Origin: Candidatus Wolfebacteria bacterium GW2011_GWB1_47_1
GTDB taxonomy: Bacteria; Patescibacteriota; Minisyncoccia; UBA6257; UBA9933
Length of the DNA: 64,000 bases
Assembly (NCBI GenBank): GCA_001029635.1
Contig: CP011209.1
Span: forward strand, 618,435-682,434
Reading direction: 5' to 3'
A model generated the notes under the pieces. It was not told where the DNA came from. It worked only from the letters and a program-made list of their open reading frames with translations, and did not search any database. A program made the translations under genes and the position numbers. Of the stretch, positions 1,202-54,652 are shown in pieces (position 1 is the stretch's first letter; every line of letters starts with the position of its first letter).

Positions 1202-1269
1202 GACTCCTCCTCTGTGAGCGTGGTTTGGTGCTGTTATTATTTAAACACAGCATTTTTTTGTTGTCAAAC

Positions 1270-1556
1270 ATAGTTTTAGGGTTGTGAACCTGGATCCCGT
1301 GTCGTGGCACGGGATGACATACGCATTGCCATTCCGACCCACGAGCCTGAATCCAGAGTCCTATAGGGTAACATCACGGGTGCAAAAACTCTGGATCCCG
1401 TGTCGGAGCACGGGATGATAACTATGTTCCGCTACTATGGTGTATGTTTTCGCTCGCATGTCTTTTTCCAAGAACCGGGAAGGGTGAATGTGGTGGCAAA
1501 TAGTATCGCCTGCTATGACGCTAATCTTTTGTCCGAAATATGCGTTGGTTGAGTAA
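1270..1556 (+). repeat. Copy A of a two-copy element, with an internal 101-nt duplication/insertion
   Basis: 1391-1556 matches 50851-51016 with 6 mismatches in 166 nt. The left arm 1270-1319 matches 50831-50880 at 48/50. A 28-nt hairpin module occurs twice (1290-1317 and 1391-1418). Confidence 0.85.
1415..1552 (+). CDS. Candidate 45-aa small protein (MITMFRYYGVCFRSHVFFQEPGRVNVVANSIACYDANLLSEICVG), paralog of 50875..51012
   Basis: GGAG lies 6 nt upstream of the ATG. The ORF is conserved in both repeat copies; 4 of 6 nucleotide differences are synonymous third positions. It is below the ORF-track length cutoff. Confidence 0.4.
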   Translation: MITMFRYYGVCFRSHVFFQEPGRVNVVANSIACYDANLLSEICVG

Positions 1557-1635
1557 ACACTGTTTTGGAAAATTGCTGTCACATGGCGTATACTGTATGC
1601 ATACATGCGATCAATGTCTGTTTTTATTTTTTGCG

Positions 1636-22623: not shown

Positions 22624-22654
22624 AAAACAAAAAACGCCCCGGGAGGGGCGTTGC
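22624..22654 (-). terminator. Intrinsic terminator, family 1 (cgccccgggaggggcg)
   Basis: Hairpin plus T-run on the minus strand after gene 22669..23022. This 31-mer is identical to 23090-23120. Confidence 0.75.
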
Positions 22655-23089: not shown

Positions 23090-23120
23090 AAAACAAAAAA
23101 CGCCCCGGGAGGGGCGTTGC
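23090..23120 (-). terminator. Intrinsic terminator, family 1 (exact duplicate of 22624-22654), T-run fused to TTGACA
   Basis: Identical 31-mer. On the minus strand the T-run runs into gttTTGACAaac, the -35 of the next gene. Confidence 0.75.
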
Positions 23121-25831: not shown

Positions 25832-25895
25832 ACACTCCCCCTCTTTTCCTCAGTGATATGAACTAAACGTAGCGTCGCATGTATCGATGGTTCTG

Positions 25896-25930
25896 TCAAA
25901 AAAGCCCCCGATTGCTCGGGGGCTTGACTG
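25896..25930 (-). terminator. Intrinsic terminator, family 2 (gcccccgattgctcgggggc), T-run fused to TTGACA
   Basis: Identical to 26464-26497 except for a 1-nt indel. Confidence 0.75.
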
Positions 25931-26463: not shown

Positions 26464-26497
26464 TCAAAAAACCCCCGATTGCTCGGGGGCTTGACTG
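26464..26497 (-). terminator. Intrinsic terminator, family 2 (duplicate of 25896-25930)
   Basis: Same hairpin and flanks, about 70 nt downstream of the stop of gene 26563..27186. Confidence 0.75.
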
Positions 26498-27286: not shown

Positions 27287-27400
27287 CATACCATCGATGA
27301 AATTGAATCAATAGCCCTCTTGTATAAATATACGTGTTTCTCACGTAAATGGTTCAGTCGGGAATCGATGTAAGTCGATCCAGTCGTCTCCATGATCCTA
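27287..27400 (-). pseudogene. queA: Decayed fragment of queA (internal about 37 codons)
   Basis: 27287-27342 matches 29777-29832 at 55/56, with weaker similarity to about 27400. Two in-frame TGA codons and a frameshift relative to the intact queA. Confidence 0.8.
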
Positions 27401-29629: not shown

Positions 29630-30667
29630 TCAGTATATCAACATACCATCTCCAAATGAAAAGAATCGAAACTTTCGTTTAATTGCAATCTTGTAGAGCT
29701 TGAAGAGTGTATCCTTGCCGATCAGTGCCGCAACCAGCATCAAGAGGCTGGATTGTGGCACGTGAAAGTTGGTTACCATACCATCGATGAAATTGAATCG
29801 ATAGCCCTCTTGTATAAATATACGTGTTTCTCCTGTTAAACGTTTCAATTGGGAATCGATACAGGCTGACTCAAGTGTTCGGACTACTGTCGTACCTACT
29901 CCGATAATGGGGCGGCCTTCCTCCTTCGCCTTGTTGAGAAAGTTTGCCGTCTGCTTGTCTATTGAAAATGATTCGGTGTGTAGCGCGCCGGTATCGAGAT
30001 GCTCCTGCGTAAGTGGCGCAAATGTACCAATGTTTACATGGAGTGTTATAAAGCGAATGTCTACCCCCTGCTTCTGCAGCTTTTTTAATAGGCGATCAGT
30101 AAAATGGAGCGATGCGGTTGGTGCTGCGACTGAGCCGGCATGCTTAGCAAATACCGTCTGGTATTTTTTACGCAATTCGCGTTCGTTGAGTGGCGATTCT
30201 TTTATGTAAGGAGGGATCGGCGTGATGCCATGGCGATCAAGTATCGTATTGAGCTGCTGTAATGGAAACGATGGCTTAAGTAGATAATATTTTCCTTCTT
30301 GTTTTGCAACATTAAAAAATAAGCCACTTGTGATCCGGACATTGGTTCCTACTTCGAGCTTGCGATCTGACATAGCGCGGATTACATCTCCCTCTTGGGC
30401 AATATAAAGGATGCGCGCGGTTCCTCCTGTCGGTTTGGTAACCGTCAGGCGCGCGGGAAGAACTTTTGTTTGGTTGAATACCAATACCGCGCCCTTTGGC
30501 AGGTATTCCCCTATATGCGCAAAGGTCGTTTCAGTGATCGAATCGGCATTTCGATCGTATACCAAAAGTTTGGCGCTATCGCGGGGCGATGCGGGCTTTT
30601 GCGCGATCAGCGTTTCTGGAAATGCGTAATCGTATTCTTTGAGTATTTTTTCTAGTGGTTTTGACAT
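29630..30667 (-). CDS. queA: S-adenosylmethionine:tRNA ribosyltransferase-isomerase
   Basis: YDYAFPETLIAQKPASPRDSAKLLV..., GITPIPPYIKE and FFSFGDGMLI motifs. Start set at the ATG at 30667, just after the upstream stop. Confidence 0.9.
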   Translation of the reverse strand: MSKPLEKILKEYDYAFPETLIAQKPASPRDSAKLLVYDRNADSITETTFAHIGEYLPKGAVLVFNQTKVLPARLTVTKPTGGTARILYIAQEGDVIRAMSDRKLEVGTNVRITSGLFFNVAKQEGKYYLLKPSFPLQQLNTILDRHGITPIPPYIKESPLNERELRKKYQTVFAKHAGSVAAPTASLHFTDRLLKKLQKQGVDIRFITLHVNIGTFAPLTQEHLDTGALHTESFSIDKQTANFLNKAKEEGRPIIGVGTTVVRTLESACIDSQLKRLTGETRIFIQEGYRFNFIDGMVTNFHVPQSSLLMLVAALIGKDTLFKLYKIAIKRKFRFFSFGDGMLIY

Positions 30668-50612: not shown

Positions 50613-50830
50613 GAGCGCTCCTTTTCTTGTTGGGGTTGCGGTTGATGTCCTTGCCAAGACATTGTGAAATTCGAAATGTGCTACAGATTTTTATTTTACC
50701 ACATCATCTAATTTTGTCAACTAACACTCCGCTAACGCACATTTCGGCCAAAGTAATTTACAATACCCTAATAGGGCTCCGGTTACATTGTCATATCGGC
50801 GGAGGCCGGTATCCAGCATTGTTGTGGAAA

Positions 50831-51016
50831 AATAGTTTTAGGGTTGTGAACCTGGATCCCGTGTCGGAGCACGGGATGACAACAATGTTCCGTTACTATG
50901 GTGTATGTTTCCGCTCGCATGTCTTTTTCCAAGAACCGGGAAGGGTGAATGTGGTGGCGAATAGTATCGCCTGCTATGACGCTAATCTTTTGTTCGAAAT
51001 ATGCGTTGGTTGAGTA
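50831..51016 (+). repeat. Copy B of the two-copy element (uninterrupted form)
   Basis: See 1270..1556. Contains the 8-bp hairpin ATCCCGTG/CACGGGAT (50855-50876). Confidence 0.85.
50875..51012 (+). CDS. Candidate 45-aa small protein (MTTMFRYYGVCFRSHVFFQEPGRVNVVANSIACYDANLLFEICVG)
   Basis: GGAG sits in the hairpin loop 6 nt upstream of the ATG. A terminator follows directly. Plus strand within an otherwise minus-strand region. Confidence 0.45.
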
Positions 51017-51021
51017 ACTAA

Positions 51022-51048
51022 TAAAAATCCTCTCATCGAGAGGATTTT
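51022..51048. terminator. Bidirectional hairpin terminator (aaaaatcctctc atcg agaggattttt)
   Basis: Serves the small plus-strand ORF and the minus-strand PspC-domain gene. Confidence 0.75.
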
Positions 51049-51050
51049 TA

Positions 51051-51293
51051 TTATGCCGCGTTTTCTTCCGTAGTTTTCTTTGCTTTAGCTACCTTTTTAT
51101 GCTCACTTCGATGTGGAACAATGAGTGCGGCGAAGATGTACGCGATCACTCCCGGGAATATTCCCGTAAAGACTACAACCAGTATCCATACGACCCGCAA
51201 CAATACGGGGTCGAGATCAAAATATTCACCTACTCCTCCGATCACACCGCTGACCGCTTTATTCGATTCGCTTTTGTATAATCGCTTTGTCAT
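51051..51293 (-). CDS. PspC domain-containing membrane protein
   Basis: RLYKSESNKAVSGVIGGVGEYFDLDPVLLRVVWIL is the PspC motif. Confidence 0.85.
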   Translation of the reverse strand: MTKRLYKSESNKAVSGVIGGVGEYFDLDPVLLRVVWILVVVFTGIFPGVIAYIFAALIVPHRSEHKKVAKAKKTTEENAA

Positions 51294-53810: not shown

Positions 53811-53888
53811 ACAAAAAAGCCCCCTGAGGCACTAGTGATTAATTGAGCTCCCATTATATCCTTAATCTATAAATTTGTCCAGTCAAAA

Positions 53889-53913
53889 AAGCCCCCGAAT
53901 CGAAAGGGGGCTT
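53889..53913 (-). terminator. Intrinsic terminator, family 2-like (gcccccgaatcgaaagggggc), T-run fused to TTGACT
   Basis: Hairpin plus T6 on the minus strand after the HAD gene. Confidence 0.7.
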
Positions 53914-53923
53914 ATCTAGGCAA

Positions 53924-54553: not shown

Positions 54554-54623
54554 AATCCCTCCTTTTACTATCTAGTTGTAGTGATCTATTACCAAGTGTT
54601 GCACGCGATCGTTTTGTTGTCAA

Positions 54624-54652
54624 AAAAGCCGCCCGATATTCGGGCGGCTTTT
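54624..54652 (-). terminator. Intrinsic terminator after gene 54663..55160
   Basis: aagccgcccg atatt cgggcggctt plus a T-run on the minus strand. Confidence 0.7.

Follow-up and report, generated by a model that had tools for sequence, protein, structure and literature searches.

A MITE-like repeat element of a Wolfebacteria genome carries an NTS/SRM-type hairpin array that differs by exactly one unit between copies

The Neisseria Transformation Sequence (NTS), CGTCATTCCCGCGMAVGCGGGAATCYRG, has been generalised as the Ssn-related motif (SRM). The motif is bound, only as single-stranded DNA, by Ssn proteins, which are small single-domain GIY-YIG nucleases (cd10448) (Chenal 2025, PMC11893778). 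The neisserial Ssn does not bind it as RNA, and the Ssn cut site lies a few nucleotides upstream of the motif (PMC11893778). The dRS3 repeat, which is the core of the NTS motif, also builds the NIME arrays of Neisseria (dRS3-RS-dRS3), in which the number of units varies between strains (PMC1797815). Further families with which a short, hairpin-rich repeat may be compared are the REP/BIME sequences with RAYT, the palindrome-associated MITEs of IS200/IS605, and classical MITEs such as the Rickettsia palindromic elements and the Correia elements, the latter occurring as full-length and internally deleted forms.

Here we analyse a repeat element in a stretch of 64,000 nucleotides, hereafter the window, from Candidatus Wolfebacteria bacterium GW2011_GWB1_47_1 (contig CP011209.1). 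The window is also contained in a 633,307-nt contig of a Rifle groundwater metagenome (JGI 3300025309 Ga0209212_1000002). The element looks like a MITE, being non-coding and bounded by terminal inverted repeats, and its two copies in the window, A and B, look paralogous. Copy A (1258-1556) and copy B (50817-51017) agree at 96% identity, except that A is longer by exactly 101 bases. A repeat search of the window yields 96% identity between 1391-1556 and 50852-51017 and 94% between 1266-1319 and 50828-50881, and the global alignment of A with B has one internal gap, of exactly 101 nt. The original prediction of an extra 101-nt stretch in A, lying between two 28-nt modules, is thus borne out by both methods. 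Its placement of the element end 80 nt upstream of the amidohydrolase ATG (1636) was correct as well; it was also right on the homology of A with B, except that copy A begins at about 1258 and not at 1270. In our opinion, it is likely that the copies are paralogous MITE-like elements with an NTS/SRM array in which one unit was gained or lost by recombination or slippage between hairpin repeats. The features of copies A and B are listed in Table 1.

Table 1. Coordinates, in the window, of the features of copies A and B
Feature	Position	Strand	Remarks
Copy A, remnant of spacer sp0	1258..1289	+	Homology with B and C starts here; left terminal inverted repeat, left region and inverted hairpin 0 missing in A
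Copy A, SRM1: TGTCATCCCGTG-CCACGA-CACGGGATCCAG on the minus strand; plus-strand loop TCGTGG	1290..1319	-	Exact SRM match; -7.9 kcal/mol
Copy A, linker tacgcatt (8 nt) between SRM1 and inverted module	1320..1327	+	Similar to the L041 array
Copy A, decayed inverted SRM: GCCATTCCGA...CTGAATCCAG	1328..1356	+	GCCAT in A, GTCAT kept in C; no longer folds (-1.2 kcal/mol)
Copy A, spacer sp1 (34 nt) with palindrome cctatagg	1357..1390	+	98.6% identical in C, absent from B
Copy A, SRM2: loop TCGGAG; flank GATGATA, giving ATCAT on the minus strand	1391..1420	-	B and C have GACA there; -7.9 kcal/mol
Copy A, body	1421..1527	+	Most of an open frame of 45-50 codons, doubtfully real, lies here
Copy A, right terminal inverted repeat: TTTGTCCGAAATATGCGTTGGTTGAGT	1528..1554	+	A/B/C homology ends at GAGTA
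Copy B, left terminal inverted repeat: ACTCCGCTAACGCACATTTCGGCCAAA	50726..50752	+	21/27 complementary to 50989-51015
Copy B, inverted SRM0: GTCATATCGGC-GGAG-GCCGGTATCCAG; SRM-like, opposite orientation	50790..50816	+	Folds at -5.2 kcal/mol; homologous to GTCATACCGGCGAAAGCCGGTATCCAG in L041
Copy B, spacer sp0 (35 nt)	50817..50851	+	Alignment of copies
Copy B, single SRM hairpin: left flank of SRM1, loop and right flank of SRM2	50852..50881	-	Exact SRM match; alignment
Copy B, body	50882..50988	+	Repeat search and copy comparison
Copy B, right terminal inverted repeat	50989..51015	+	Followed by a bidirectional terminator hairpin, 51019-51053

The existence of only these two copies, with the element missing from relatives, had been named in the original prediction as a finding that would refute it. 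A third copy, C, exists, and the hairpin itself recurs across phyla. Copy C was found by a metagenome scan with the small ORF of the element as query, which returned two truncated contigs only (L130 and L131), both of them copy C cut off by the contig end; the copy is complete in L136 (8407-8793), where it adjoins parA/parB. Its host is the same or a closely related Wolfebacteria population. Beyond the two copies of the window and the one in L136, L130 and L131, no further copy was found. Pairwise identities show the three copies to be equidistant (A-B 95.9%, A-C 96.0%, B-C 95.8%), and the 101 nt, absent from B, are the sole indel that sets B apart from A and from C. Copy A recurs without a single difference in nine independent public contigs, so its structure is not an assembly artefact. 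All contigs covering either locus are identical, and no alleles differing in the presence of the 101 nt were seen there. An apparent shorter allele of A in L140 was rejected, the sequence having a scaffold gap instead.

It should be noted that the element interrupts assemblies. In the metagenome-assembled genome just mentioned, the gap (NN, L140 9991-9992) stands over window positions 1295-1531; NCBI contig LCNR01000010 ends at 50785, and two JGI contigs (L130 and L131) start, at their position 1, within the element body.

The 28-nt module CTGGATCCCGTGTCGNNGCACGGGATGA is located at 1290-1317, 1391-1418 and 50852-50879, with no further occurrence in the window at up to 3 mismatches; against these 3 occurrences, 100 shuffles gave 0 matches. 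Read on the minus strand, it consists of TGTCAT-CCCGTG-loop-CACGGG-ATCCAG, and by sequence and fold it is an NTS/SRM-type hairpin. The published SRM search motif, HGTCWYN(0-2)YYVSBRHN(0-5)WNVSBRGN(0-2)RNCYNB (PMC11893778), is matched exactly by 1290-1319 and 50852-50881, both on the minus strand, and missed by one base at 1391-1420, which has ATCAT for GTCAT. The motif has 3 matches in the window versus 0.18 in 100 dinucleotide shuffles, a small enrichment in which all hairpins lie inside one repeat element. All three modules fold as single-stranded DNA into a hairpin with an 8-bp stem (-7.9 kcal/mol with DNA parameters). The loops are those originally described, TCGTGG in the first module of A and TCGGAG in the other two. 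The inverted SRM0 of copy B misses the motif, by manual reading at a single position.

Thus, the hairpin shares with NTS/SRM (PMC11893778) the succession of GTCAT, a palindrome rich in CCCG/CGGG and ATCYRG, two window copies satisfying the motif, and it is likewise repeated, predicted to fold as single-stranded DNA and oriented by non-palindromic flanks. The second hairpin type of copy C is even identical to the Neisseria NTS consensus at 26 of 28 positions. Unlike the described NTS/SRM systems, the hairpins here are rare, lie inside an element bounded by inverted repeats and have no ssn gene in the 82 kb examined. The host, moreover, is a member of the CPR/Patescibacteria, a group not mentioned in the text of PMC11893778.

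A scan of one genome per species, with the two stem arms only as query, placed the 30-nt module in more than 120 genome stretches from Rickettsia, Thermoanaerobaculia, Marinagarivorans, Kangiella, Bacteroidetes, several CPR lineages and others. Flanks outside the search pattern are conserved, with AC after the module (after GATG) in 122 of 135 cases and CT before GGAT in 82 of 135. Other Wolfebacteria carry arrays (L041 twice, L081) in which an inverted SRM is followed by about 35 nt, an SRM with a TCGTGG loop, about 10 nt and another inverted SRM; hairpin orientations alternate in these arrays as they do in the window element. The region 1290-1337 of copy A, from SRM1 through the linker into the next module, has 85% identity with the array at L041 3850-3902 across 53 nt. 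Spacer homology between the arrays described here and L081 was also considered, and the similarity is too weak to claim.

In order, the element consists of a left arm, a left region, an inverted SRM-like hairpin, a 35-nt spacer, one or more SRM hairpins, a 107-nt body and a right arm; the hairpin array thus occupies the left half. Copy B measures 290 nt and copy C 387 nt. Copy B is complete, and copy A is without its left end: A retains the right arm only, everything leftwards from about 1258 being gone, and the terminal inverted repeat motif had no match upstream of this remnant. The inverted repeats of copy C, AACCAACGCACATTTCGGCCAAA and TTTGTCCGAAATATGCGTTGGTT, are 23 nt long, 91% complementary and 337 nt apart, and they sit exactly at the homology boundaries between copies. 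In copy B the arms are complementary at 21 of 27 bases. The right end of homology is GAGTA in all three copies. The left-arm motif is common to B, the left end of C and L081; a right inverted repeat was looked for in L081 and not found. A possible target site in B is AACTAA, present on both sides with a 1-nt offset, and the left flank of B, TGTCAACT, occurs in L081 as well. No direct repeat flanks copy C. The element holds no transposase, its sole ORFs being short and without a family match in Pfam.

These features are like those of classical MITEs such as the Correia and Rickettsia palindromic elements, with a length of 290-390 nt, terminal inverted repeats, no transposase, an intergenic position next to promoters and terminators, and length variants by internal deletion. 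Unlike classical MITEs, the element has three known copies rather than many dispersed ones and no clear target-site duplication, and no parent or related autonomous insertion sequence was identified. REP/BIME sequences with RAYT and the IS200/IS605 palindrome-associated MITEs resemble the element in their alternating hairpins, short linkers and mosaic units, and in that action is thought to be on single-stranded DNA; they differ from it in hairpin sequence, which is unrelated, and in being families without long terminal inverted repeats, and no Y1 transposase was seen here.

Two further observations concern the ends and the layout of the element. In copy B, CATTGTTGT (50817-50825) and ACAACAATG (50880-50888) are a 9-nt inverted repeat without mismatch, seen in the RNA fold, around the spacer and the hairpin, the right half of which is substituted in A and C. 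A scan of viral contigs with the inverted-repeat motif returned one 27-nt match and three to the 19-nt pattern alone, with the element in none of them; the 27-nt match (L145 5860-5886; IMG/VR contig 3300025296_000522, classed viral) is 92.6% identical to the left-arm motif GCTAACGCACATTTCGG.CAAA.GTAATTT.

The 101 nt amount to exactly one unit of the hairpin array and are situated between two direct copies of the 28-30-nt hairpin. The unit comprises the hairpin SRM1, the 8-nt linker, a decayed inverted hairpin and the 34-nt spacer, and it is 97% identical between A and C. The complementary segments noted originally, atccagag (1351-1358) and ctctggat (1389-1396), and the palindrome cctatagg (1360-1367) are at the positions given. 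The complementarity is that of the arrangement in which ATCCAGAG of the decayed inverted SRM pairs with CTCTGGAT of SRM2, i.e., the 3' flank of the inverted module faces the 5' flank of SRM2. The spacer preceding SRM1 is dissimilar to the spacer preceding SRM2, and the two units therefore did not arise by recent tandem duplication. In none of the loci fetched do the 73 nt between the hairpins have another copy; they occur in A and C only, always in the same place, which does not fit the suggestion that they are a mobile insert in their own right.

With 73 nt between two hairpins and a number of units that varies between copies (present in A and C, absent from B), the array is comparable to NIME (PMC1797815), in which short hairpin repeats likewise surround unrelated 50-150-nt segments and unit number changes between copies or strains. 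By this analogy, it appears to behave like a small neisserial mosaic element. Unlike the long NIME arrays next to surface-protein genes, it has two units only, its hairpins alternate in orientation, and its host belongs to a different phylum.

The breakpoints lie inside the two direct copies of the 28-30-nt hairpin, and we infer a recombination mechanism and its direction. Replication slippage or recombination between these direct repeats would have gained or lost one unit, the hairpins acting as DNA structures and not as a translation start. In the likelier version, which is also the simplest, one unit would have been deleted in B. This version is favoured because two of the three equidistant copies keep the unit. 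B had been regarded as the uninterrupted copy; given that C also carries the unit and that all three copies are equidistant, B is as likely, or likelier, to be a deletion derivative, and it probably lost a unit rather than A having gained one. In the less likely version, an ancestor shared by A and C would have acquired the unit through repair templated by another array; the tree being star-like, such an insertion may have fallen on a short branch that leads to these two copies. Of the two mechanisms proposed at the outset, slippage between hairpins is retained as one of two for a hairpin-bounded difference that is itself real, and the 73 nt as an independently mobile insert found no support.

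The alternative that comes closest is that A, and C with it, gained the 101 nt by insertion, either because the SRM-dimer unit is mobile or because it was copied in by break repair. A single-strand break next to the resident hairpin would have been repaired from a two-hairpin donor array, with the intervening 73 nt copied along. We regard this as unlikely. With two of three equidistant copies bearing the unit, it calls for two identical insertions or for a grouping of A with C of which the substitutions give no sign; the 73 nt have no further copy in the fetched loci, and no Ssn gene was found in the 82 kb. Nevertheless, several observations agree with it. In A, the inserted stretch would reach from the loop of a canonical hairpin as far as the 5' arm of the following one, a distance of exactly one array period. 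SRM1 with its linker resembles the L041 arrays, and Ssn nucleases are known to cut single-stranded DNA a few nucleotides from the motif (PMC11893778). Moreover, copy C shows an apparent true insertion: a 78-nt SRM-bearing piece with TGTCATTCCCGCGAAGGCGGGAATCCAC that splits the left inverted repeat.

This 78-nt segment (L136 8794-8871) is situated between ACTC and AACCAACGC, which are contiguous in the right arm and have a contiguous counterpart, ACTCCGCTAACGC, in the left arm of B. TGTCATTCCCGCGAAGGCGGGAATCCAC is the second SRM type of C, the one that agrees with the Neisseria NTS consensus at 26 of 28 positions, and it is identical over 30 nt to L081 1513-1542. The segment lends some support to a gain by repair. 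That SRM-bearing units of about 80-100 nt are themselves mobile, inserting at or near hairpins or elsewhere through a single-stranded DNA break followed by copying, seems to us quite improbable. If it were true, the element would bear the traces of two such events, one being the 101-nt unit of A and C, the other the 78-nt NTS-like segment of C, and it would offer a concrete route for the multiplication of NTS/SRM, which the 2025 Ssn paper left open, and extend the system to the CPR.

On the reading that we prefer, recombination or slippage between hairpin repeats, an Ssn-type nuclease may have started the rearrangement. No GIY-YIG or Ssn ORF was found at E <= 10 in the window and 18 kb of flanks (82.4 kb of the 633-kb contig; regular expression, phmmer and jackhmmer), so a nuclease-driven step is unsupported in this genome. 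A CPR GIY-YIG protein used as query returned Patescibacteria proteins, none of which was traceable to this genome. The hairpin is also rare, with only three copies in 82 kb, all within this element. In other genomes, a small GIY-YIG gene stands beside the hairpin in nine of about 120 loci, and the two that were tested both match Pfam GIY-YIG. Locus L052 (Candidatus Doudnabacteria) is the only CPR locus among those scanned with the nuclease gene and the motif close by. In it, the small GIY-YIG gene (1109-1360) is followed by a tRNA-like gene, recognised by eye, at 1381-1470 and, about 500 nt downstream of the GIY-YIG gene, by an SRM hairpin with a TCGGGG loop (1864-1893).

A different view of the hairpin takes it, with the GGAG of its loop and the ATG that follows, as the regulated start of a small protein gene, and the first module of A as its decayed duplicate. 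A frame of 45-50 codons is indeed open in all three copies, GGAG precedes the ATG by 6 nt, substitutions in the frame are 5 synonymous to 3 non-synonymous, and NCBI annotated a partial ORF here. Against this view, the hairpin recurs across phyla as a DNA repeat to which no ORF is attached, and its ATG, inside GGGATGAC, belongs to the conserved GTCAT flank. In other Wolfebacteria and Parcubacteria, TCGTGG is the loop usually found (L041 twice, L081, L074, L076) and thus not a decayed form, and TCGGAG loops occur in unrelated phyla without the ORF (L015, L084), Bacteroidetes and Fibrobacter copies among them. Among the A, B and C substitutions another frame scores 4:4, so that no frame stands out, and the inverted repeat of the element supplies the final nine codons of the ORF, eight of them sense codons and one the stop. 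A search of 5.8 billion proteins returned no homologue of the ORF except its own annotation, and Pfam had nothing for it, for the 61-aa ORF or for the 81-aa minus-strand ORF. The small ORF is probably not a gene, and a start region here, decayed or intact, appears very unlikely. The claim that the ATG of the first module opens only 18 codons was mistaken as well: the ATG at 1314 is in frame with the ORF at 1284..1418 and opens 34 codons.

Public gene calls run across the element at both loci: an 81-aa ORF at 1361-1606 (-), the partial UX83_C0010G0001 at 50627-51013 (+) and, at 1540-1635 (+), 32 codons that lengthen the amidohydrolase at its N-terminus, from a start within the inverted repeat. 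Family matches are lacking for all of them, and these calls are probably spurious.

A reading of the element as a cis-regulatory RNA or as the gene of a small RNA, with the hairpins as RNA structures, is in our view highly improbable: the region of copy B folds as RNA better than shuffles (z = -4.8) and a terminator hairpin follows the element in B, but it is the repeat hairpins and the terminator that produce the fold signal, no terminator follows copy A, a consensus scan saw no promoter in front, no Rfam family reached the gathering score or E < 0.01 (searches of the whole window at gathering score and of both loci at E <= 1 returned nothing meaningful), and the neisserial Ssn binds its motif as single-stranded DNA and not as RNA (PMC11893778).

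As to neighbouring promoters, the element had been proposed to abut the -35 box of a divergent 61-aa gene; the consensus scan found no minus-strand promoter-like site for this ORF near the element. The only promoter-like site near copy A is TTGGAA-18-TATACT (1565-1594), immediately beyond the right arm and in front of the amidohydrolase. At the other locus, a strong promoter-like site with a TG, TTGACA-16-TAAAAT, lies at 50693-50720 (-) and faces a 260-275-aa gene; its -35 box is 5 nt outside the left inverted repeat of B. The sequence beside the repeat that was given above as the left flank of B is also conserved in L081 (6055-6087), there next to another gene. The element may thus bring with it, or generate, a -35 box that faces outwards.

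Elsewhere in the window, a direct repeat of 68-84 nt with about 90% identity is found at 27287-27354 and 29777-29844, where one copy follows a cytochrome-b5-domain gene and the 3' end of a queA-like gene contains the other; it is possibly a duplicated gene fragment. Near-identical families of GC-rich hairpins after A-runs (AAAAAGCCCCCGATTGCTCGGGGGCTT, AAAAACGCCCCGGGAGGGGCGTT) are located at 25895-25930, 26466-26497, 22624-22654, 23090-23120, 53882-53918 and 54619-54650 and are probably shared intrinsic terminators between short genes.

The hairpin type itself was already known, and the points of interest are, in our opinion, the CPR host and the view, at the level of single bases, of a hairpin-bounded rearrangement. 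Because the element attracts spurious gene calls and breaks assemblies, annotators of these genomes should mask it. A motif that was characterised only in 2025 is now placed in a CPR bacterium, with a sequence almost as in Rickettsia and other Proteobacteria. The array, moreover, presents a clean natural rearrangement with both breakpoints in copies of one hairpin, of a kind that has been proposed for neisserial mosaic arrays and is seldom seen base by base.
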